Assembly (NCBI GenBank): GCA_934746645.1
Contig: CAKVFE010000002.1
Location: 220,880 to 284,879, forward strand
DNA length: 64,000 bases
DNA from: an uncultured Clostridia bacterium
GTDB taxonomy: Bacteria; Bacillota; Clostridia; Christensenellales; UBA1242
Direction: 5' to 3'
Of this stretch, positions 13,382 to 58,183 are shown piece after piece; position 1 is the stretch's first letter, and every line of letters starts with the position of its first letter. A program made the position numbers and the translations under genes. The notes below the pieces were generated by a model. It saw nothing but the letters and a program-made list of their open reading frames with translations, was not told the origin of the DNA and did no database searches.

Positions 13382-14320
13382 TTGAGTAGAGTTGTTCTTA
13401 AATTAGAAAATGTAACAAAAGCATTTGAAGATAGAGTTGCTGTTAATAATGTCTCCTTTGAAATACACGAAGGGGAAATTTTTGGTTTCTTAGGTCCTAA
13501 TGGAGCTGGTAAAACAACCACTATGCGTATGATTTGTGGCTTAACCAAACCTACACACGGCAACATTACTATATGCGGTTATAATGTCCAACATGACTTT
13601 GAAAAAGCCATGAAACTAACCGGTGGAATTATTGAAAATCCCCTAATGTATGGTTATATGTCTGGTTATGATAACCTTAAATATTATGCAAGTCTTTATA
13701 AAGGCATTACAAAAGATACAATATATGCTTACGCAAAAATTGTAGGACTAGAACATAGATTAAAAGATAAAGTTAAATTTTATTCTTTAGGTATGCGTCA
13801 AAGATTAGGTATTGCTCAAGCACTACTTCACAATCCTAAATTATTAATATTGGACGAGCCTTTTAGTGGACTAGACCCTCAAGGCGTTGTTGAGATGAGA
13901 AAATTCTTAAAGAATTTGGCTCAAAAATACAAAATAGCAATTATGGTAAGTTCGCATATGCTTGCCGAAATGGAACAATTATGTGATACACTTGCTGTTA
14001 TTAATGCAGGTCAATTAATTGAATTAAAATCTATACATCAACTTAAACAAAGTATTGTTGGTTCTAGAAGAATTAAATTTAAAGTTGACTACCCTAACTT
14101 TGCTGGTAAAGTTGTTATCAACGAATTTCACTTCCCTGTTGATGTCGCAGGCAATTGCATATACATAACTGCTGGCGAAGAACAAGTACCTGAAATTAGC
14201 AAACGCTTACTAGATAATGGATTATCAATTTTTGGTGTAGAATTTATTTCAAAATCACTAGAAGAAATATTTATGGAACTTATTAAACGCAAAAATAAAG
14301 GACATATCGAAATCTTTTAA
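13382..14320 (+). CDS. ABC transporter ATP-binding protein
   Basis: Walker A GPNGAGKTT, signature YSLGMRQRLGIA, Walker B LLILDEP. TTG start with RBS aagagga. Confidence 0.92.
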   Translation: MSRVVLKLENVTKAFEDRVAVNNVSFEIHEGEIFGFLGPNGAGKTTTMRMICGLTKPTHGNITICGYNVQHDFEKAMKLTGGIIENPLMYGYMSGYDNLKYYASLYKGITKDTIYAYAKIVGLEHRLKDKVKFYSLGMRQRLGIAQALLHNPKLLILDEPFSGLDPQGVVEMRKFLKNLAQKYKIAIMVSSHMLAEMEQLCDTLAVINAGQLIELKSIHQLKQSIVGSRRIKFKVDYPNFAGKVVINEFHFPVDVAGNCIYITAGEEQVPEISKRLLDNGLSIFGVEFISKSLEEIFMELIKRKNKGHIEIF

Positions 14321-18345: not shown

Positions 18346-18420
18346 AGGGGAGTAGTTCAATGGTAGAATCGCGGTCTCCAAAACCGTTGGTTGAGGGTTC
18401 GAGTCCTTTCTCCCCTGCCA
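18346..18420 (+). tRNA. trnW: tRNA-Trp (anticodon CCA), CCA-3' encoded
   Basis: Hand-folded cloverleaf: acceptor AGGGGAG/CTCCCCT, anticodon stem GCGGT/ACCGT with loop CTCCAAA, T-loop TTCGAGT. Confidence 0.93.
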
Positions 18421-29188: not shown

Positions 29189-29266
29189 CGGGGTGTGGCT
29201 CAGTTTGGCTAGAGCACTTGATTTGGGATCAAGGGGTCGGGAGTTCGAATCTCTTCACCCCGACCA
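29189..29266 (+). tRNA. trnP: tRNA-Pro (anticodon TGG)
   Basis: Acceptor CGGGGTG/CACCCCG, anticodon stem CTTGA/TCAAG with loop TTTGGGA, T-loop TTCGAAT, CCA encoded. Confidence 0.9.
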
Positions 29267-29290
29267 TTATTATTGAAATTGTTGCAGATT

Positions 29291-29367
29291 GGGCCTTTAG
29301 CTCAGTTGGTTAGAGCGACCGGCTCATAACCGGTTGGTCCGGGGTTCGAGTCCCTGAAGGCCCACCA
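29291..29367 (+). tRNA. tRNA with CAT anticodon, probably tRNA-Ile2 (lysidine type), alternatively elongator Met
   Basis: Loop CTCATAA. Not an initiator (G1-C72 paired, no GGG/CCC anticodon stem). The GGGCCTTTAGCTCAG...AGGCCCACCA body resembles tRNA-Ile, with C4 and C5 in the acceptor stem. Confidence 0.85.
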
Positions 29368-29396
29368 ATTATTTTTCTTTAAATTATATTTTATAT

Positions 29397-29473
29397 GGCC
29401 CGGTAGTTCAGTTGGTTAGAACGCTAGCCTGTCACGCTAGAGGTCGAGAGTTCGAATCTCTTCCGGGTCGCCA
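29397..29473 (+). tRNA. trnD: tRNA-Asp (anticodon GTC)
   Basis: Acceptor GGCCCGG/CCGGGTC, anticodon loop CTGTCAC, T-loop TTCGAAT, CCA encoded. Confidence 0.9.
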
Positions 29474-29531
29474 TTATTATAGGTTAAAGAAAAGTATATT
29501 ACTTCCCTAACCTGTAATATAATTATTATGT

Positions 29532-29607
<76 letters not shown>

Positions 29608-29636
29608 TAATATTCTATATAACTTCCCTTAATTAC

Positions 29637-29712
29637 GCTGGTGTAGCTCAACTGGCAGAGCAGCTGATTTGTAATCAGCAGGTTGTAGGTTCGATTCCTA
29701 TCACCAGCTCCA
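29637..29712 (+). tRNA. trnT: tRNA-Thr (anticodon TGT)
   Basis: Acceptor GCTGGTG/CACCAGC, anticodon stem GCTGA/TCAGC with loop TTTGTAA, CCA encoded. Confidence 0.9.
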
Positions 29713-29723
29713 TTTTTAGTTAT

Positions 29724-29808
29724 GGGCAAGTTCCAGAGTGGCCAAATGGAGCAGACTGTAAATCTGTTGTCTCTGACTTCGGTGGTTCGAATCCATCCTT
29801 GCCCACCA
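29724..29808 (+). tRNA. trnY: tRNA-Tyr (anticodon GTA), long variable arm
   Basis: Acceptor GGGCAAG/CTTGCCC, loop CTGTAAA, long variable arm, T-loop TTCGAAT, CCA encoded. Confidence 0.9.
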
Positions 29809-40599: not shown

Positions 40600-42237
40600 T
40601 TATTTGTTGTAATATCCAGTAAATGTTACTTTAAACATAGCATTGCTTGGATTTGTAAATACCAATTTGATGTAGTTTGAACCATCTGATGAATTTTTAG
40701 ATGTTTGATTGTTAGCAAACAAATCATTATTAGTATCTTTTTCTGTGCTACCATTGTAAGAACCGATTGTGCTATAGCTGTGTAAATCAAATTCTACAGT
40801 TTCACCACTTGCAGACAATCTAACTTTCTTTTGATTACTACTTGCATTAGAACCATTTACACTGCAACCAATTGTAAGTTCTACATTGTTGCCTGTACCT
40901 TCAATCTTAACTACAAGTTTTGTAGCTGGAGTGCTTGTTCTTGGAGCCAATACAATAGAATCAAAGTTTGATGTTGAAGTTGTAAATACATTGCTACTAT
41001 AGTCTGTAGCATATCTATTCATTGATGGATAAATAGATTGTGTTGTGCCTTCAAAAGTATTATTTAATGCTTGTTCTACAATAGCTGGAACTATAATGTT
41101 ATAACCTTTATATAAACGAGGTGAATTTTCATTTTCTAAATCACTATAATTAGAATTACCAGGATATGGTGCATTTACCATAAAATTACTATTAATTACA
41201 TAATTATTTTGTTTAAAGTAATTGCTATCATAAATTTTATTATCTTTTTCAATTAGACTATTACCTATAACATTGTTATTAATAAAATTAACGATGTTAT
41301 TTTTATAGCTTGAATTTATTCCTAATTGATTAATATTTTTTAATAAATCATTATATTTGCTTGCATTGTATATGCCATCTAAATTGGAATTTGTTAAAAT
41401 TTGAGCAACAGCCATCTTAAAATTATTTTTATTAATATTTACAAAATTTAATGTATTTTCACTATTATTTGCCCATTTCCACGAATTACTTGAATTTGCA
41501 ATAAGTTGAACAACATTTAAACTTGTATTATCTCCTGTTATTGCTCCATATAAATTCATATAATTTTTATTATAAATATAATTTGTACTTGATTCATAAT
41601 TGTTTAAGAAACTTTGTATACAATCATCACAATTTAAATTAAGTTCATTTGAATGTGAATGATTAATATTTTTTACAATTACTTTATTATCATTTACCTT
41701 TGCAATAGCACCATTCAAATTAAATACATTATTATTTGTATTATAAAGAAGTTGTTCTCCCAATTCAGTTTTCAATCTGTTAGTGCCATTTGTTCCATAA
41801 ATATAATTTAATCTATAAAGTATATCTTGGGCAAATACATCTAATTGACGATCTAATACTTCATCAAAAGATTTTGTTACATTGTCAGCATCTTTTACAC
41901 TTGCTCTAGTTGATGTAGTCTTCATACCACTAAAATATGTTGACATAGATTGTGGTTCACCTGGTTTAAGACTTTCATTAACATATCCACATACTTCACA
42001 AGTATATCCACCATTGTATTTATGGTCTTCACGCTCTTCTGCAGTACAACCTGAACTTGTACATTTTCTCCAGTGTTGTGTAGCATTGTGCTCCCAATTG
42101 CCATAAGTGTGTTGAGTATGTTCGATACTAGAACCACCACCACCATTGCCACCACCGCCAGTACAGCCTGCTAAGCCAAACACTGAAGTAGCCATAACTG
42201 ATGTTAGAGCTAAAACTAAAATTTTGCTTTTCTTCAT
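40600..42237 (-). CDS. Lipoprotein of unknown function, paralog A
   Basis: MKKSKILVL...FGLAGC lipobox followed by a Gly-rich linker. RBS aaggggaa. About 350 aa are collinear with the 43022-45103 product (LDRQxDVxAQDxLYRLNYIYGTNGT, HSH..NL.C..C, SAPYPGNSNYS, NSPRLYKGYNII.PAIV.QAL). It also has a 4-Cys/His-rich module just after the linker. Confidence 0.8.
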   Translation of the reverse strand: MKKSKILVLALTSVMATSVFGLAGCTGGGGNGGGGSSIEHTQHTYGNWEHNATQHWRKCTSSGCTAEEREDHKYNGGYTCEVCGYVNESLKPGEPQSMSTYFSGMKTTSTRASVKDADNVTKSFDEVLDRQLDVFAQDILYRLNYIYGTNGTNRLKTELGEQLLYNTNNNVFNLNGAIAKVNDNKVIVKNINHSHSNELNLNCDDCIQSFLNNYESSTNYIYNKNYMNLYGAITGDNTSLNVVQLIANSSNSWKWANNSENTLNFVNINKNNFKMAVAQILTNSNLDGIYNASKYNDLLKNINQLGINSSYKNNIVNFINNNVIGNSLIEKDNKIYDSNYFKQNNYVINSNFMVNAPYPGNSNYSDLENENSPRLYKGYNIIVPAIVEQALNNTFEGTTQSIYPSMNRYATDYSSNVFTTSTSNFDSIVLAPRTSTPATKLVVKIEGTGNNVELTIGCSVNGSNASSNQKKVRLSASGETVEFDLHSYSTIGSYNGSTEKDTNNDLFANNQTSKNSSDGSNYIKLVFTNPSNAMFKVTFTGYYNK

Positions 42238-42325
42238 TTTTTTATTCCCCTTTTTTATCAATAATACTAATATTTTTGTTATATACTATTGTTTTTGTAG
42301 TATACACTACCTTATGTACATACCT

Positions 42326-42355
42326 ATTATACCACAAACAATAACATAGTTGCAA
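42326..42355 (-). promoter_or_regulatory. Sigma-A promoter of lipoprotein paralog A
   Basis: Minus strand TTGCAA (42350-42355), 18 nt, TGgTATAAT extended -10 (TATAAT at 42326-42331). Confidence 0.55.
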
Positions 42356-42461
42356 TACCCAAAATTAAAAAAAATATGTAAATTATTAAATATATATGTT
42401 ATAAGAAAACAGCTTGTATAAAATTATTTTATTTATTATATTAACTTAACTATTGTTACTT

Positions 42462-42485
42462 GTCATTTCTAAAGCGAAATCGAAC
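42462..42485 (+). repeat. Degenerate 5' fragment of the GTCATTCTGAGCG repeat family (D0)
   Basis: GTCATTTCTAAAGCGAAATCGAAC resembles the 5' half of the full units (GTCATTCTGAGCG..GTCGAAC). Confidence 0.5.
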
Positions 42486-42518
42486 ACAAAGAACAATAAT
42501 GTAATATGTTTGTTTGCT

Positions 42519-42603
42519 CCCCTGTCTAGATTACGACTGCATTTCATTTGTTGCTTGTCCGTTTCACTCCCAAGTTCGACTATCGCTCATAATGACAGAC
42601 AGG
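42519..42603 (-). repeat. Structured repeat unit U1 (subfamily 1)
   Basis: Minus strand reads CCTGTCT-GTC-ATTAT-GAGCGATAGTCGAAC...GCAGTC-GTAAT-CT-AGACAGG(GG). Near-identical copy at 45599-45683 on the plus strand. Confidence 0.85.
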
Positions 42604-42610
42604 TAATATA

Positions 42611-42690
42611 CCCACCTAGATTCCATGTCGCATTGCTCCATTGCCTTTCACTATCGTTCAAGGTTCGGCTACGCTCAGAATGACAGGTGG
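42611..42690 (-). repeat. Structured repeat unit U2 (subfamily 2)
   Basis: Minus strand reads CCACCT-GTC-ATTCT-GAGCGTAGCCGAAC...-GGAAT-CT-AGGTGG. Near-identical copy at 45365-45444 on the plus strand. Confidence 0.85.
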
Positions 42691-42784
42691 AATTGTATTA
42701 TCATTGTTGAAACATTAAACTAGTAAATATAAAATAGTGCTATTATTTACAAATAGTTTATTCTATATAGAAATTTGGGCTTAT

Positions 42785-42861
42785 ACTTGTCATTCTGAGC
42801 GAAACGAAGTGAAGTCGAACCCCAACGGGCAACGGCTTGCCGTTGGAATCTAAAAACAAGT
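42785..42861 (+). repeat. Structured repeat unit U3 (subfamily 3)
   Basis: GTCATTCTGAGCGAAACGAAGTGAAGTCGAAC-CCC-AAC-GGG-CAACGG-CTTG-CCGTTG-GAATCT. Core 42789-42851. Confidence 0.85.
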
Positions 42862-42874
42862 AGTCTGTTTTATT

Positions 42875-42953
42875 GTCATTCTGAGCGTAGCGTTAGCGAA
42901 GTCGAAATTTGACTTTGTCAAATCGAAAGAGTGCCAAGCACCTTTCGGAATCT
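42875..42953 (+). repeat. Structured repeat unit U4 (subfamily 4)
   Basis: GTCATTCTGAGCGTAGCGTTAGCGAAGTCGAA, then hairpin ATTTGAC/GTCAAAT, then hairpin CGAAAG-aGTGC-caa-GCAC-CTTTCG, then GAATCT. Confidence 0.85.
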
Positions 42954-42977
42954 AATATCACCCATATACTAAACCAA

Positions 42978-43018
42978 TAAAAAAAGTAAACCAAGTATAA
43001 GAACTTGATTTACTTATT
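42978..43018. terminator. Bidirectional terminator: ends lipoprotein paralog B (minus) and any plus-strand transcript through U3-U4
   Basis: agtaaaccaag...cttgatttact with A7 upstream and T7 downstream. Confidence 0.75.
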
Positions 43019-43021
43019 TTT

Positions 43022-45103
43022 TTAGAATGTAAATGGCATTAAGCTAATATCAAATACAACATCATTTTTGTATTCGCTAGCGTCTACAAGTTGAGTACTA
43101 TTGTCACCAGAATATTTTTTTACACTCTTAATATTAAATGTAAATTGAATATAGTTGTCGCCAGCATCCAAATATACTGAACTATCATCAGACTTATAAC
43201 CATTATTGAACAATGTCATTGAACTAGAATCGCTAGGTCCATTGTATGTACCCATTTTTGGTGTATCATCAGTATATTTATCATATATTGAAAATACATA
43301 GTTAAATGGCAAAATCTCTCCATTGGTATCATAAGGTTTTCTAAAACTCTCAGAATATGGGTCTTTTGCATTAGGATTGTTAGGGTCAAATGTAACTTTA
43401 GTTGGGTCAAAATTAGGGTCGCTAGTATCAATATATGTTGGTACATAACCTTTACTATCTATAGTTAGTACTCCACTATCTTCACCATCTGGCACATAAG
43501 TAGGCATATTAAGTACATAAGATTGTTTTTCCCCATTAGTATAGTAACTAGCTTTATATGTTATGTTTACTTCCAACTCCACTACAATATCGTGAGCATA
43601 ACAACCTAAATCGTTGATATCATCACTTTGCTCTCCATTGTTCAATTTACGAGCTGTAGCAATTTGTAATTGTAGTGCAACTGGTTGGCTATTAGCTTTA
43701 GGTTTAAGTATAATCTTATCTAAAGTTATAGGTCCAGTTGTTGTCATTTCTTCAACAACTTCTCCACTAGAATTAATTATCTTTCTAGTTTCAAAATCTC
43801 CATTTTTACTACTACTTCTAGCATAATATGGATATAATGATATTTTTGTGTTTTCAAATTTATTATCTACAATTTTTGTGAAAGAATTGCTAAGTGCTTG
43901 ATTTACTATTGCTGGAATAATTATATTATATCCTTTATATAGTCGTGGCGAATTTTGATTTTCATTTTCAGAATAATTAGAATTACCAGGATATGGAGCA
44001 CTCATCATAAATGAATCTGTAATTGTATACATACAATCAACAGAATTTAAATATTCACTATTTTCAAATATTTTTTTATCTCTTAAAATCAAACTATTAT
44101 TTCCAGTCCTATTACCATCAATAATAGTATCATATACAAAACTAATTATTTCATCTGCAAAATTTACTTTTTCACCTTTTGCATTATTAATTTTTTCAAC
44201 ATATCCTAAATAATCTATGTTATTTAATAATTTTTTATAGCTATTTTCATCATATTTCCCATCAGGTGTAATTCCACTAACAATTTGACAAATAGCCATT
44301 TTAAAATCATTTCTATAAGTTTCAACAAATTTAAATGTATTATTCTCAGTTACTGACCAATTCCATGACTTTGTATTATCAGGAATTAACTGTATTAGAT
44401 TTAAATTCATATTATTTCCAATAATTGCACCACTAAAATTCATAAAGTTAGTATTATATAAATAATTTAACTTTGTTGAATCATATAAATTTAAATATGC
44501 TTGATAGCATTCAATACACTTTAAGTTAAAATTACCATATTGATGTGAATGATTTTTATCTATTAATGTTGCAATAACTTCATCATTCACAACAGCCACA
44601 TTATTACCATATTTATAAACATTATTAGTGATAACATCATTTAAATTTTTATAACCTATTCTATCTTCACTTGAAGCCATCAATCTATCAGTACCATTTG
44701 TACCATAAATATAATTTAATCTATAAAGTACATCTTGAGCTAATACATCAAATTGACGGTCAAGTAAAGTATTAAATTTTACTTTACTACCAGTAGCTTC
44801 GTCTTGAACTTCAAAATCGTCATTTCCCTTTATCATACCCATATAGCCATAGAAATAATCAGAGAAATCTGCAACTTGTCCATTGCCACCAATATTACCA
44901 TCGTCATCAATATCTATATCAGAGTCATCACCTGAAGATGGTGGTTGTTTGCCTGAGTCTGGTTTTGGTGGATTGTCGCTATCGTATCCACTACTACTTC
45001 CACTACCACCACTTCCACCACCAGTACAAGCAGTCAAAAAGAATGTTGAGCATAGCAACAAGCAAAAGCAACATATTATCTTAAAAAATCTTCTTTTTTT
45101 CAT
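43022..45103 (-). CDS. Lipoprotein of unknown function, paralog B
   Basis: MKKRRFF...FFLTAC lipobox, G/S linker, acidic D/P-rich spacer, then the core shared with paralog A and a longer C-terminal region. RBS gagg. Confidence 0.8.
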   Translation of the reverse strand: MKKRRFFKIICCFCLLLCSTFFLTACTGGGSGGSGSSSGYDSDNPPKPDSGKQPPSSGDDSDIDIDDDGNIGGNGQVADFSDYFYGYMGMIKGNDDFEVQDEATGSKVKFNTLLDRQFDVLAQDVLYRLNYIYGTNGTDRLMASSEDRIGYKNLNDVITNNVYKYGNNVAVVNDEVIATLIDKNHSHQYGNFNLKCIECYQAYLNLYDSTKLNYLYNTNFMNFSGAIIGNNMNLNLIQLIPDNTKSWNWSVTENNTFKFVETYRNDFKMAICQIVSGITPDGKYDENSYKKLLNNIDYLGYVEKINNAKGEKVNFADEIISFVYDTIIDGNRTGNNSLILRDKKIFENSEYLNSVDCMYTITDSFMMSAPYPGNSNYSENENQNSPRLYKGYNIIIPAIVNQALSNSFTKIVDNKFENTKISLYPYYARSSSKNGDFETRKIINSSGEVVEEMTTTGPITLDKIILKPKANSQPVALQLQIATARKLNNGEQSDDINDLGCYAHDIVVELEVNITYKASYYTNGEKQSYVLNMPTYVPDGEDSGVLTIDSKGYVPTYIDTSDPNFDPTKVTFDPNNPNAKDPYSESFRKPYDTNGEILPFNYVFSIYDKYTDDTPKMGTYNGPSDSSSMTLFNNGYKSDDSSVYLDAGDNYIQFTFNIKSVKKYSGDNSTQLVDASEYKNDVVFDISLMPFTF

Positions 45104-45172
45104 ATTGCAACCTCAATTTTTTATTTTGATTACAAAGTAAGTGCACTTTAACACACTATATATGTTACTAGT

Positions 45173-45201
45173 ATTATACAATAATAACTATCTTATGTAA
45201 A
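45173..45201 (-). promoter_or_regulatory. Sigma-A promoter of lipoprotein paralog B
   Basis: Minus strand TTTACA (45196-45201), 17 nt, TATAAT (45173-45178) preceded by TG. Confidence 0.6.
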
Positions 45202-45364
45202 TAGAAAAGTCCAAAAAATGCCATATTTACCGATAATTTTATGCCAATATGTGCATATATTAAGTGAAGAATAAATATAAAAGTTTGATTATTTTTGACT
45301 ACAATAAGCTATATAGTTATGTACATCCTAATATACAACTTAATTTTAAACATTAACTATCCCC

Positions 45365-45444
45365 CCACCTGTCATTCTGAGCGAAGCCGAACCTTGAACG
45401 ATAGTGAAAGGCAATGGAGCATTACGACATTGGAATCTAGGTGG
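45365..45444 (+). repeat. Structured repeat unit U2' (subfamily 2)
   Basis: CCACCT-GTC-ATTCT-GAGCGAAGCCGAAC...-GGAAT-CT-AGGTGG. By hand alignment it differs from the reverse complement of 42611-42690 at about four positions. Confidence 0.85.
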
Positions 45445-45493
45445 AACAAAAGCAAATAAAATAAATAATAAAAAAGATATATTTATCGTTTTA

Positions 45494-45557
45494 AGATTCC
45501 AACAACTTGCGTTGTTGCCCTACGGGTTCGACTCCAATTCGTTTCGCTCAGAATGAC
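45494..45557 (-). repeat. Structured repeat unit U3' (subfamily 3)
   Basis: Minus strand GTCATTCTGAGCGAAACGAATTGGAGTCGAAC-CC-GTA-GGG-CAACAAC-GCAA-GTTGTTG-GAATCT. The terminal hairpin differs from U3 by compensatory changes. Confidence 0.85.
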
Positions 45558-45598
45558 AAGTATTAGCCTATTTGAGTGAATGAGTAGGTTCAATATAT

Positions 45599-45683
45599 CC
45601 CCTGTCTGTCATTATGAGCTTGCCGAACTTGGGAGTGAAACGGACAAGCGACAAATGAAATGCAGTCGTAATCTAGACAGGGG
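45599..45683 (+). repeat. Structured repeat unit U1' (subfamily 1)
   Basis: CCCCTGTCT-GTC-ATTAT-GAGCTTGCCGAAC...GCAGTC-GTAAT-CT-AGACAGGGG. Confidence 0.85.
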
Positions 45684-45727
45684 TAAAACAAATTGAATAT
45701 AGAATAAAAAATATACTTATCGTTTTG

Positions 45728-45819
45728 AGATTCCAACGGCAAGCCGTTGCCCTACGGGTTCGACTTCGCTTACGCTTCGCTCAGAATGACGAATAATACA
45801 GACTACTTGTTTTGAGATT
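45728..45819 (-). repeat. Structured repeat unit U4' (subfamily 3/4 hybrid) plus a duplicated inter-unit spacer and unit fragment
   Basis: Minus strand 45790-45728 reads GTCATTCTGAGCGAAGCGTAAGCGAAGTCGAAC-CC-GTA-GGG-CAACGG-CTTG-CCGTTG-GAATCT. Positions 45791-45819 are the reverse complement of the U3-U4 junction 42847-42875 (3 mismatches in 29 by hand). Confidence 0.8.
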
Positions 45820-45843
45820 AAAAGTTATGCGTGCCAACCAGCC

Positions 45844-45871
45844 TGCGATTGGGACAATCGCAGAGTTTTTT
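45844..45871 (+). terminator. Plus-strand terminator-like hairpin inside the multi-helix element
   Basis: TGCGATT-GGGAC-AATCGCA followed by GAGTTTTTT. It would end a plus-strand transcript coming from repeat cluster 2. Confidence 0.5.
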
Positions 45872-45883
45872 GTGCGCAGGCAC

Positions 45884-45917
45884 AAAAAAACCATATAGAC
45901 CGAGTTGGTCTATATGG
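45884..45917 (-). terminator. Minus-strand terminator of spoIIM inside the multi-helix element
   Basis: Minus strand CCATATAGACC-AACTC-GGTCTATATGG followed by a T7 run. Confidence 0.7.
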
Positions 45918-45928
45918 GCTGGTTGGCA

Positions 45929-46555
45929 CTATACGACTATAATTATCACTTTAACCAATGGTAAAAGTAAACATTTTAACAGAATAATCACTACCCCAAT
46001 TATAACTAATGCCCAATACACTTTTTTATAATTAAAATTGCTACAGCAACTATTACAGCCATACTTTTTTATAATGTTATTCCGTTTAATAGCAATAGCT
46101 GATAAAAAGATAAGTATAAGACATACCATAAGGTCAAATGGCAGTATAAAGATAAAGACATTAAGCACACCAGATATGCCATATTGAACAATAAATATAG
46201 TAATATCAAAGCCAATAAGATATCCTTTTATAATCAAAATAAGAAAAGTAAAAATCTTACAAAATGGCTTAAAATTGACAAAAATTATAATCCCTGAAAA
46301 GAAAAGGAATCCAAACATACACGGAAAAAACAATCCCATAGTACCTCTATCCCCTTTCAGAAATTCGACAAAATTGCTATCAGAAAGATTGGAAAGTGTA
46401 AGGTCGCCAGAATACTTGATAGATTTAAATATCCCTAAACTTAAACCAAACACTAAAAAAACAAAACACAACAAAAGAAGTGCTTTGTATGTGCTCCAAA
46501 ATTGAGCAAAGCTATTTTTATATTTATATTGATTTTTATAACTATTAGACTTCAC
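45929..46555 (-). CDS. spoIIM: Stage II sporulation protein M (SpoIIM-like)
   Basis: About 208 aa with 5 TM helices. The IIKGYLIGF motif parallels B. subtilis FLKGVVVGF. Topology and size fit SpoIIM, and it is adjacent to spo0A/spoIVB. Confidence 0.6.
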   Translation of the reverse strand: MKSNSYKNQYKYKNSFAQFWSTYKALLLLCFVFLVFGLSLGIFKSIKYSGDLTLSNLSDSNFVEFLKGDRGTMGLFFPCMFGFLFFSGIIIFVNFKPFCKIFTFLILIIKGYLIGFDITIFIVQYGISGVLNVFIFILPFDLMVCLILIFLSAIAIKRNNIIKKYGCNSCCSNFNYKKVYWALVIIGVVIILLKCLLLPLVKVIIIVV

Positions 46556-46576: not shown

Positions 46577-47332
46577 CTAAAATTTAATACTCCTATCAAG
46601 TTGAGAATAGCTAATAATAACTTGGTCAAGTAAATATGCTAAAAATGCCCTATTGCTTACAGTACTACCAGCAAAGATAGTATTGAGTACACCATCTTGA
46701 CAATGTTTTTGTGCTAAAGTTATCGAATTGCGAATATTCCTTTCTATATTGATAGGATTGGTATTATTACGCAAAGCAACTTTTGGGTATACTTCTGTAC
46801 TCAAAGGCCCTAGTACACCATTATTGATAAGTGCTTCTTCAATACATTGTTTGATATAGTTAAATCCCATATGCTTAGGCAAAAATCCCATACGAATAAG
46901 GTATTCGGTTAAAAATTGACTAACAATCCTATAATCAAATCTAAAGGTGTTGTTCTTTTCAATATTAAACAAAATCCTTTCTCTAAGTGGTGCCATACTC
47001 TTATAGAACTCATTGTAAGACATACAAAATCTACTTACACCATCAATATTGATTTGTTGTGTGTCATTAACACCAAGATAAACAATATTGTCCGGTATAC
47101 CAAATTTAGCATCTTTTTGGACATTAACAAATTCGTCAGTTATATCAATAGACTCTCCGTCTACTATAAGCAAATTAACTTGTTGTTGGTTGACTGTATA
47201 GATAAGGTCAGAAAAGAACTTAACTATACTTAAATTAAACTTTTTAGAATTATGGAAAATTTCATTCATCTCCATCATTCGTTTTAAATTATCTCTACAA
47301 TAAAATACTGTATACAGATTCTCCGTTGCCAT
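46577..47332 (-). CDS. spo0A: Spo0A orthologue with a divergent, apparently degenerate receiver domain
   Basis: The C-terminal half matches the Spo0A_C DNA-binding domain (MGFLPKHMGFNYIKQCI..., EVYPKVA, NIERNIRNSI). Canonical position immediately downstream of spoIVB. The N-terminal REC-like half retains LLIVD but lacks several conserved REC residues by hand alignment. Confidence 0.75.
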   Translation of the reverse strand: MATENLYTVFYCRDNLKRMMEMNEIFHNSKKFNLSIVKFFSDLIYTVNQQQVNLLIVDGESIDITDEFVNVQKDAKFGIPDNIVYLGVNDTQQINIDGVSRFCMSYNEFYKSMAPLRERILFNIEKNNTFRFDYRIVSQFLTEYLIRMGFLPKHMGFNYIKQCIEEALINNGVLGPLSTEVYPKVALRNNTNPINIERNIRNSITLAQKHCQDGVLNTIFAGSTVSNRAFLAYLLDQVIISYSQLDRSIKF

Positions 47333-57001: not shown

Positions 57002-58183
57002 CTACAATATGTTGGCAGTAGTCATTATTAGCGCAATGCTTAATAGATACATAAATGATACAGCCAAAATCAAGACTAAAGGATAAATCAATATTTTTGA
57101 ACACCCCATACAAAAATCAGAAATTTTCCCATCAGATATAGGTTCCAATATTGCAGAAGTTAACTGCAATACAAGTCTTAAAAGAAGAATTTGTACTATA
57201 GGTTGAATTATTAATCCAACAATAATCAGTAGTCCAATAACACCTATCGCATTTTTAATAATAACTGAAGAACACATAATCAAATCAAATCCATCTGATA
57301 TAAATCCACCAATAAGTGGAATATAACTTTTAACTGCAAACTTGGTAGCTTTTATACTAATACCATCATATTTACCAGCACTAATGCCCTGTATTGTTAG
57401 AAAAGCAGTAAACAATGTCACTGAAAATCCAATAACAGTTTTAAACAAATTAGAAATAAATGTATTAGATTTAGTAAGTTTAACATTCTTACTTAAATTG
57501 CTTATTATCAAAAATATAAAAGATAAAATAAATAACGGAAATAAAAATTTAGAATATATTGTACCAATACCACTAGTAAGTATAGCGATAATCGGTCTAT
57601 ATATTCCAACACTCGCAACACCACCAACTGCAGTTAGCAATGTAAGCATTATTGGGAAAATTATAGATATATGAGAGTTCATTATATTTAATACAGAACC
57701 TGTATTTTTTATAACCCCTGTTATTGATGACGATAACAATAAAACTACACTTGCATAACAGACAAAATGAATCAGGTCATTAACACCAGCTCCACTTTTA
57801 CTTGATTTTAATGTGTTGAGTATACTCCCCACCACTGCAATACCAACAATTAAAAACATTAATGGTAATAGTTTTTTTACACCATTAAACACAAGATTAA
57901 TTAACGAATCAAATATACTTGAATAAGAAGAAAAATAATTTCCGGAAGATATTTGTTTTATTACATCTTTAATTGATGTTGTATTGTCTAAATTATAAAA
58001 TTGAGTTAAATCATTTAAACAATCTTCCAAATTACTTAAATCCAAATTATCTAATTGATCTGATATTGATTGATTAATTTTTATTTCAACATTTTCACCA
58101 CTATCAGCTTTTACATAAATTGCTGGCTGAATATTAAACATACCAATAATACAGATTGATAAAAAAAATATAAATTTTTTCAT
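57002..58183 (-). CDS. spoIIIAE: Stage III sporulation protein AE
   Basis: Signal peptide followed by about 7 TM helices, 393 aa, correct operon position. Confidence 0.85.
   Translation of the reverse strand: MKKFIFFLSICIIGMFNIQPAIYVKADSGENVEIKINQSISDQLDNLDLSNLEDCLNDLTQFYNLDNTTSIKDVIKQISSGNYFSSYSSIFDSLINLVFNGVKKLLPLMFLIVGIAVVGSILNTLKSSKSGAGVNDLIHFVCYASVVLLLSSSITGVIKNTGSVLNIMNSHISIIFPIMLTLLTAVGGVASVGIYRPIIAILTSGIGTIYSKFLFPLFILSFIFLIISNLSKNVKLTKSNTFISNLFKTVIGFSVTLFTAFLTIQGISAGKYDGISIKATKFAVKSYIPLIGGFISDGFDLIMCSSVIIKNAIGVIGLLIIVGLIIQPIVQILLLRLVLQLTSAILEPISDGKISDFCMGCSKILIYPLVLILAVSFMYLLSIALIMTTANIL

Follow-up and report, generated by a model that had tools for sequence, protein, structure and literature searches.

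A 64,000-nt stretch of DNA from an uncultured Clostridia bacterium (contig CAKVFE010000002.1; "the window" refers to this whole stretch) carries a family of short, G+C-rich, structured repeats, of which eight units are complete, with lengths of 63-79 nt, and a ninth copy is a fragment. On balance, these units are best explained as a non-autonomous, REP-like mobile DNA palindrome, which would act as a folded single strand and be moved by a trans-acting enzyme. The family as a whole is probably, if by no means certainly, a small (~65-100 nt) mobile element within a superfamily of many bacterial phyla. This explanation draws on the mixed orientation of the units, the lack of G.T enrichment in their stems, their GNA and GNNA loops, their location in spacers predicted to be untranscribed, and the nesting, strain turnover and decay of the copies.

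Repeat units of the window

The units are grouped in two clusters, 42463-42953 (cluster 1) and 45371-45790 (cluster 2), with the lipoprotein gene 43022-45103(-) between them, and four are found on each strand. A scan for the box GTCATTCTGAGCG, allowing up to two mismatches, gave nine matches in the window against 0.30 expected, a number reached in none of 100 shuffles. Eight of the nine correspond to the full units. The remaining match, at 57021, is due to chance and is missed by the covariance model described below. This model, a search that an earlier note on cluster 1 had proposed, recovers precisely the eight units (E 3e-18 to 2e-3) and no further one in the 64 kb, other intergenic regions included.

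All units share the 5' start GTCATT(C/A)TGAGC, an internal (G/C)(T/C)CGAA(C/A) followed by one or two hairpins, and the 3' end G(G/T)AATCT. Their G+C content ranges from 0.42 to 0.56, whereas that of the window is about 0.29. The earlier note had described these common sequences and the high G+C content, as well as two minus-strand units, two plus-strand units and a fragment in cluster 1, and direct reading bears out the description, strands included. The features are as follows, P1 being the outer stem of the fold.

42326-42355(-): promoter-like site TTGCAA-18-TATAAT with TG, of gene 40600-42261, at one boundary of cluster 1 (pattern match only)
42463-42486(+): degenerate 5'-half fragment (GTCATTTCTAAAGCGAAATCGAAC), from direct reading
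42521-42603(-), core 42528-42596: unit u1, subfamily B; box match, model E 6e-4; P1 CCTGTCT/AGACAGG
42612-42690(-), core 42618-42684: unit u2, subfamily A; box match, model E 2.3e-4; P1 CCACCT/AGGTGG
42789-42851(+): unit u3, subfamily C; model 67.1 bits, E 2e-16; seed member of alignment A1
42875-42953(+): unit u4, subfamily D; model 38.9 bits, E 1.3e-8; outside the seed
42984-43015(-): terminator-like hairpin and T-run of gene 43022-45103 (inverted repeat I2), at the other boundary of cluster 1 (pattern match only)
45365-45444(+), core 45371-45438: unit u5, subfamily A; box match, model E 5.8e-7; P1 CCACCT/AGGTGG
45494-45557(-): unit u6, subfamily C; model 61.1 bits, E 9e-15
45599-45683(+), core 45608-45674: unit u7, subfamily B; box match, model E 1.9e-3; P1 CCCCTGTCT/AGACAGGGG
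45728-45790(-): unit u8, subfamily C with a 5' part like that of u4 (D); top model match, 73.7 bits, E 3e-18

The fragment holds the box and the CGAAC element, lacks the hairpins and the 3' end, and is missed by the covariance model. In u3, the stem P2 is ATTC/GAAT and the hairpins hpA and hpB are CCC..GGG and CAACGG-CTTG-CCGTTG, respectively. The hairpins of u4 are longer (TTTGAC-TTT-GTCAAA and CGAAAGAGTGCCAAGCACCTTTCG), with related copies in loci L002, L006 and L057. Each cluster is bounded by a terminator-like hairpin on one side and the following promoter-like site on the other, as far as pattern matches can tell, which for cluster 1 agrees with the spacer from terminator to promoter outlined in the note. 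The genes flanking this spacer, 43022-45103(-) and, on its low-coordinate side, 40600-42261(-), are indeed paralogues (40% identity over 396 residues, E 8e-79) whose products have a lipobox-like N-terminus. The units were also rightly judged to be non-coding, given their mixed orientations and spacer location, and the open reading frame (ORF) 42453-42683 crosses the fragment and two units antisense.

Between the clusters, identity reaches 93% for u1/u7, 94% for u2/u5 and 91% for u3/u8, each pair having one member per cluster in mutually inverted orientation, while u6 is 82% identical to both u3 and u8. Since each cluster precedes one of the two paralogous genes, and the paired units are 91-94% identical, the repeats could be taken for a local scar, of no wider meaning, from the tandem duplication of the lipoprotein genes. 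However, the clusters differ in the order and orientation of their units and are therefore not collinear duplicates, the proteins are 40% identical while the unit DNA is more than 90% identical, and members of these subfamilies are also found in Christensenella sp. UBA6345 and in dozens of further genomes, where their contexts are unrelated. Because copies are found elsewhere, this explanation can be regarded as already refuted.

Fold and folding strand

Read on the GTCAT strand, the unit folds into a perfect four-way junction of P2, P3, hpA and hpB, which is often closed by the outer stem P1. The sequence of P1 varies by subfamily and yet remains complementary (CCACCT/AGGTGG, CCTGTCT/AGACAGG). 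Between P1 and P2 lies an internal loop with (T)GTC opposite CT. P2 consists of 4-5 bp (AT-nnn/nnn-AT) and opens into three arms with no unpaired base at the junction. The P3 arm is formed by a T-A pair, tandem sheared G.A/A.G pairs, a G-C pair and a C-G pair with a bulged T, often with a GNA-capped extension, and the other two arms are the hairpins hpA and hpB.

The fold is borne out by covariation. The covariance model was built from an alignment (A1) of 22 subfamily-C units from eight genomes and the window, in which 98.4% of the cells are paired, against 26-47% in slid controls, and both sides have changed in 9 of 20 pairs. The model found 96 copies in 359 kb of Clostridia loci. Its 91 distinct matches make up a second alignment (A2), where 98.0% of 1359 cells are paired, pairing percentages being inflated here by the fitting of A2 to the model, and where compensatory changes were seen in 17 of 20 pairs (260 cells), a result matched by none of 500 shuffles. 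The stem P2 covaries from copy to copy, as TTC/GAA, TCC/GGA, TAC/GTA, TTA/TAA and CCC/GGG in the long form of the element, and as TTCT/AGAA, CCCT/AGGG, TCCT/AGGA, TCTT/AAGA and TGTT/AACA in a short form found in other lineages.

The mismatches and loops of the Clostridia copies are informative about both strand and molecule. Among the 1359 cells, G.T mismatches are about as frequent as A.C mismatches (7 vs 6), so wobble pairs are not enriched. By contrast, G.A cells outnumber their mirror image, C.T, by 14 to 2, which identifies the GTCAT strand as the one that folds. GNA accounts for 66 of 153 triloops, with 5 expected, and the 39 GNNA tetraloops comprise 14 GNRA and 25 GNYA, non-GNRA examples being GATA, GTCA and GTTA. 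The units thereby contain the DNA mini-hairpin motif (GCGNAGC or GCGNNAGC, that is, a C:G-closed G-N-A or G-N-N-A loop with any N), which defines a structural motif rather than an element family. Mini-hairpins of the types d(GCGNAGC) and d(GCGNNAGC) are very stable with any N, the melting temperature being 76.5 C for the DNA form and 39 C for r(GCGAAAGC) (PMC13037366). As a whole, the evidence leans towards an element acting at the level of DNA rather than RNA.

A structured RNA has nevertheless to be considered, be it a small RNA, an mRNA-stabilising or processing hairpin, as REP RNA is in E. coli, or a new self-cleaving ribozyme cutting at GUC. The strong covariation and the invariant core nucleotides would suit such an RNA, tandem G.A pairs in a Y-GA-R context are classic RNA motifs, and a promoter-like site (42707-42735(+), a pattern match) lies ahead of u3 and u4. 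In addition, the short form shows a mild bias towards positions downstream of a co-oriented gene (63 vs 36) and, in several viral-collection contigs, is often found just upstream of a ribosome-binding site, both of which fit some RNA-level effect. On the other hand, the orientation of the units relative to the majority gene strand is 29:29 in Clostridia loci and mixed within a single spacer, G.U pairs make up only 0.5% of the cells and are no commoner than A.C, and the tetraloops violate the GNRA rule. Moreover, both clusters of the window lie outside predicted transcription units, the copies decay and turn over between strains, and the conserved bases are mostly in helices around a fully paired junction, unlike known ribozyme cores. 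An RNA function is hence judged improbable.

Searches for known RNA families agree with this judgement. Rfam 15 returned only tRNAs for the window at gathering score, nothing relevant at E<=10 in 42300-46100, and nothing on the units of 16 other loci at gathering score, in keeping with the earlier remark that the fold resembles no named RNA family. The families without a covariance-model match at gathering score include hammerhead, twister, pistol, hatchet, HEARO and IS605-orfB. Mapping by hand onto the hammerhead ribozyme also fails: this ribozyme has CUGANGA...GAAA around a three-way junction and is cleaved after UH, whereas the units have CUGAGCG...CGAA(C), a four-way junction, and GUC before P2 instead of at stem I. 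A hairpin-ribozyme mapping was rejected both by direct reading and by Rfam, the polarity of the GUC strand being wrong for ribozyme cores, and so was a likeness of the reverse strand to a tRNA or T-loop.

Spread, turnover and genomic setting

A pattern scan of one genome per species matched at least 119 genome stretches from many phyla. Once evident chance matches in coding DNA had been discarded, the true units among the matches listed came from Oscillospiraceae, Christensenellaceae, other Clostridia, Peptoniphilus, Acidobacteriota, Bacteroidota, Verrucomicrobiota, Chloroflexota, Nitrospinota and others. The nearest relatives of the window subfamilies among these matches are those of Christensenella sp. 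UBA6345 (L057, L108, L112). Long forms are found in Clostridia and Acidobacteriota, although in Acidobacteriota and Peptoniphilus the extra hairpin is located within the P3 loop and not after TCGAA.

The short form, a single hairpin (GTC-ATTCT-GAGCGNAGCGA-AGAAT-CT), occurs in many lineages, among them Bacteroidota, Cyanobacteria and contigs of viral collections. Its exact 24-base version, GTCATTCTGAGCGNAGCGAAGAATC, is present in 92 contig stretches of IMG/VR, and the same string is also carried, unannotated, by plasmids of Planktothrix, Calothrix, Hymenobacter and Granulicella; records of cultured phages gave no convincing copy. The earlier note had likened the 5' box of the units to a widespread GTCATTCTGAGCGAAGCGAAGAATC-type repeat. 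The wide occurrence of the exact short form indicates that this repeat does exist and represents the family in its minimal form. Neither outcome that the note had named as refuting was obtained: no described family was matched, and copies are numerous elsewhere.

Some of these loci have arrangements of their own. Three tandem short-form units on plasmid p1 of Planktothrix agardhii (L225, record 13790-13819) are intergenic, with a BREX methyltransferase gene (pglX) on one side and a PIN-domain/DISARM (drmA) gene block on the other. A metagenome-assembled genome (MAG) of Acidobacteriaceae (L124, 365-1392) contains a tandem array of eight copies with a 138-nt period, and Pedobacter nototheniae (L009, 3513-4100) an array of five composite repeats of ~135 nt, each formed by a 5' half, a short unit and an inverted partner.

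Units are also combined with one another in a more intricate manner. In rumen Clostridia MAGs, a unit with its own P1 is nested in the P3 loop of a unit of the opposite strand. Composites of this kind, ~190 nt long and with one forward-reading unit on each DNA strand, are present in L088, L034, L076, L118, L091, L093, L040, L055 and L073. Inverted doublets of short units are seen as well, the P2 stems of the two partners being different and each internally complementary, and the 5' halves of short units stutter.

Comparison with contigs of the same species from other samples reveals turnover and decay. The flanking genes are 95-96% identical, but cluster 2 differs by whole units, and heavily decayed, AT-rich units are present there. 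The fragment at 42463 in the window is a remnant like these decayed units. High G+C content is restricted to intact copies, suggesting that selection acts on the element and not for the host. The view of the earlier note that the G+C-rich units form a structured family under selection stands, with strong covariation in its favour, and is refined in this respect. Same-species short-read contigs (L001, L002, L004, L005, L006, L224; Logan) end inside units, breaking off on either side of the lipoprotein gene and also past a gene for a 208-aa protein, so that the repeats are breakpoints of public metagenome assemblies. No version of cluster 1 from another strain was recovered: the only strain contig found with gene 43022-45103 is 2.5 kb long and terminates in units, and no record was found of lipoprotein 40600-42261 with either start codon.

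The surroundings of the clusters are those of a sporulating member of the Clostridia, as indicated by a Spo0A gene at 46577-47332(-) (Pfam match); SpoIVB-type peptidase and RecN-like genes were matched by Pfam on the strain contigs. A separate, single-copy G+C-rich structure of four helices lies at 45826-45931, right after the stop of ORF 45929-46555(-). It has a 13-bp closing stem (GTGCCAACCAGCC/GGCTGGTTGGCAC) around three hairpins and terminator-like hairpins with T-runs on both strands. Six strain contigs carry the structure with 95-100% conservation, and Rfam gave no match to it. Elsewhere in the window, where most genes are on the minus strand, six tRNA genes are clustered at 29189-29805(+), with one more at 18346-18417.

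Related elements and proposed mode of action

The family works most like the REP, BIME and REPIN elements of E. coli and Pseudomonas (PMC3116915), which are likewise short extragenic imperfect palindromes present in many copies and both orientations. As in REPs, the units form clusters or inverted doublets, lack target-site duplications and coding capacity, and favour the 3' ends of genes and convergent spacers (21 convergent vs 8 divergent for this family), and REPs are also thought to work as hairpins in single-stranded DNA. No direct repeat indicative of a target-site duplication was seen around u1, u2, u5 and u7 or their relatives in L057 and L112. In REPINs, the replicating unit is an inverted doublet. 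Inverted doublets of the short form are common elsewhere, and rumen MAGs have nested opposite-strand pairs; the units of the window are single, each cluster having units in both orientations. Contrary to REPs, which start with 5' GTAG, form a simple hairpin and are lineage-specific, all units of this family begin with (T)GTCA and combine the GTCA...GAGC...TCGAA...ATCT sequence with tandem G.A pairs, a four-way junction in the long form and the same core across phyla. REPs are furthermore accompanied by the REP-associated tyrosine transposase RAYT, a Y1 HUH enzyme whose gene the repeats typically flank, and no RAYT gene flanked by units of this family was found in the loci examined. With no GTAG, a branched fold, a core shared by different phyla and no evident RAYT, the family is not filed as REP.

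Among described sequences, the nearest is Bpu, a short interspersed element from the mitochondria of Cycas and Ginkgo with a 36-nt consensus, AAGGTTATCCCTTTCCTGAGCGTAGCGAAGGGAAGG, and ~500 copies (PMC8297867, citing Chaw et al. 2008). Bpu has an identical 15-nt hairpin core, CTGAGCGTAGCGAAG, and its consensus follows the same design, with the stem CCTTTCC/GGGAAGG, a T-A pair, tandem G.A, GC and a GTA triloop. Its 5' GTTAT overhang is comparable to GTCAT, and Bpu is also mobile and non-coding. However, Bpu is organellar, only 36 nt long and bounded by AAGG as terminal direct repeats, and it has neither the ATCT end nor the four-way junction. Besides these repeats, a Bpu unit is characterised by a CCTGAGC (Bpu10I) site. 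The window units do have a hairpin core of the CTGAGCG(N)AGCGAAG type, but with 63-79 nt and no AAGG ends they do not qualify as Bpu. The link comes from a literal text search, and the relation is a lead which may reflect homology or convergence on a very stable hairpin.

The family fits the operational class of the mobile/repeat sequence candidates (MRSC), 250 mostly undescribed motifs from searches of G+C-rich intergenic regions (Narunsky et al. 2024, PMC11109978). These are, as here, covarying structured motifs with dozens of copies per genome, inconsistent orientation, a distribution over diverse phyla and possible relevance at the DNA level (PMC11109978). MRSC-65-2 differs in being a single long stem with UYCCGG repeats (PMC11109978), and the family box had no match in one supplementary file of that study. 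No paper naming the family was found, and literal text searches with the sequence and with spurious peptides derived from it gave only the Bpu consensus as relevant.

Two further groups of elements were compared and rejected. Integron attC sites are also substrates of folded single-stranded DNA, in which a base is conserved, some bases close to the foot stay unpaired and the terminal structure varies and may be branched, but the units lack R''/R' core sites (RYYYAAC/GTTRRRY), have no cassettes between them and no integrase nearby. Miniature inverted-repeat transposable elements (MITEs), such as Correia, RUP, BOX and ERIC, are equally small, non-coding, repeated, foldable and intergenic. MITEs, however, are defined by target-site duplications and by conserved terminal inverted repeats matching those of a known insertion sequence. 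In this family, P1 varies and covaries between subfamilies (CCACCT, CCTGTCT, CCCCGCCT), and neither a duplication nor an insertion sequence with these ends was seen.

A gene for the putative mobilising enzyme was sought in the flanking DNA. All-against-all BLAST of 1907 flanking ORFs revealed no recurrent neighbour family, only synteny among closely related Acidobacteria, and no motif of a small GIY-YIG nuclease appeared in a six-frame scan of every locus. A tblastn search for Y1 transposases, with three approximate queries, found none in the window and one match in ~220 loci (~1.8 Mb). This match is an IS200-like gene (267-716) of an Eubacteriales MAG (L081), 130 nt from a unit at 846-912. 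It was dismissed as a mover of the family, as the gene has its own 5' and end hairpins and terminator, leaves the unit outside and is not flanked by units.

In the favoured explanation, one strand (GTCAT...) would fold, and the fold would matter in DNA that is single-stranded during replication or transfer. A trans-acting enzyme may then recognise the fold and cut or join at the unpaired GTC/CT loop, by analogy with the HUH tyrosine transposases that act at REP or IS200/IS605 hairpins. Copies would accumulate harmlessly in untranscribed DNA, in the spacers that separate a terminator from the promoter that follows, where they may promote rearrangement of the neighbouring lipoprotein genes.

The units could instead be DNA that the host itself uses, as a single-strand initiation or priming signal, an SSB-free hairpin, a nucleoid or topoisomerase site, or a recombination substrate for surface genes. 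GNA mini-hairpins are known from the primase-dependent origins of phage G4, from ssiA and from N4 promoters, and bind SSB poorly (PMC13037366). A cross-phylum core would also fit a conserved host partner. In Clostridia loci, genes encoding a signal-peptide-, lipobox- or prepilin-like N-terminus are enriched among those with a unit up to 600 bp upstream (15/37 vs 40/195, Fisher p 0.012; L013, L042, L096, L075, L057, L083, L118, L027, L028, L053 and the window), although the predictor is crude and the cases, which include paralogous pilin-like genes of one MAG, are not independent. In the window, u1/u7, u2/u5 and u3/u8 are each inverted across gene 43022-45103, and homologous recombination between such pairs could therefore invert the 2.7-kb segment that holds this gene and its promoter-like site. 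The 5' boxes of u2 and u4 form a perfect 18-nt inverted repeat, 42668-42685/42874-42891, which encloses an AT-rich stretch with the plus-strand promoter-like site 42707-42735; the layout resembles an invertible promoter upstream of gene 40600-42261, and equally could be chance in AT-rich DNA. Nevertheless, a given unit does not keep its position from strain to strain, units decay, and both their number and their layout are idiosyncratic. Beyond the two clusters, the intergenic DNA of the 64-kb window is free of units; no recombinase gene was seen near the units of the window, and no variant in inverted orientation was seen among six strain contigs. Use by the host thus appears unlikely.

Several observations weigh against a REP-like mobile palindrome. 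No transposase or other enzyme is linked to the units in the loci examined, and no clean pair of filled and empty sites was recovered, for which reason mobility is inferred. The loops of the window's own units are less GNA-like than those of related genomes, and the position of the short form relative to genes and ribosome-binding sites, described above, fits some effect at the RNA level. Besides the inflated pairing percentages of A2, the folding energies of single units are unremarkable (z -3.3 to +0.1 with RNA and -2.6 to +0.04 with DNA parameters). Folding of this kind reached no significance and did not recover the four-way junction, so that it is covariation that carries the structure. 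Finally, a near-invariant core across phyla is unusual for REP-like elements and could mean a conserved host partner or an RNA function.

This core invites a bolder, and rather doubtful, proposal. The module (T)GTCA-stem-GAGC-GNA-GC/TCGAA-stem-ATCT, which spans Clostridia to Acidobacteriota and Cyanobacteria and is echoed in the gymnosperm mitochondrial Bpu, may be the substrate of a yet-unrecognised conserved enzyme acting on folded strands, and thus part of a new system of transposition or copying that is guided by a hairpin or junction. The long form with its four-way junction and the nested opposite-strand composites would then be adaptations that offer the substrate on either strand, depending on which is exposed. 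As a less likely variant of this idea, the family could be a new RNA that cleaves or mobilises itself. The family is unusual in its core, which is invariant across phyla, in its four-way junction and nesting, and in its link to Bpu, while the general category is familiar and the mechanism a proposal.

If the explanation as a REP-like mobile palindrome is true, one small structured element with a near-invariant core has spread over a large part of the bacterial tree, and into sequences filed as viral, while being absent from Rfam and from the literature found. The element breaks short-read assemblies, creates spurious ORFs and marks hypervariable regions beside surface-protein genes. As REP-like elements are normally lineage-specific, the persistence of the core from phylum to phylum implies that either a mobilising enzyme or a host partner is conserved, and the core in common with mitochondrial Bpu is a hint that the module is very old or very readily transferred. 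The family would thereby offer a natural test of the biological role of extremely stable DNA hairpins with GNA loops and tandem G.A pairs.

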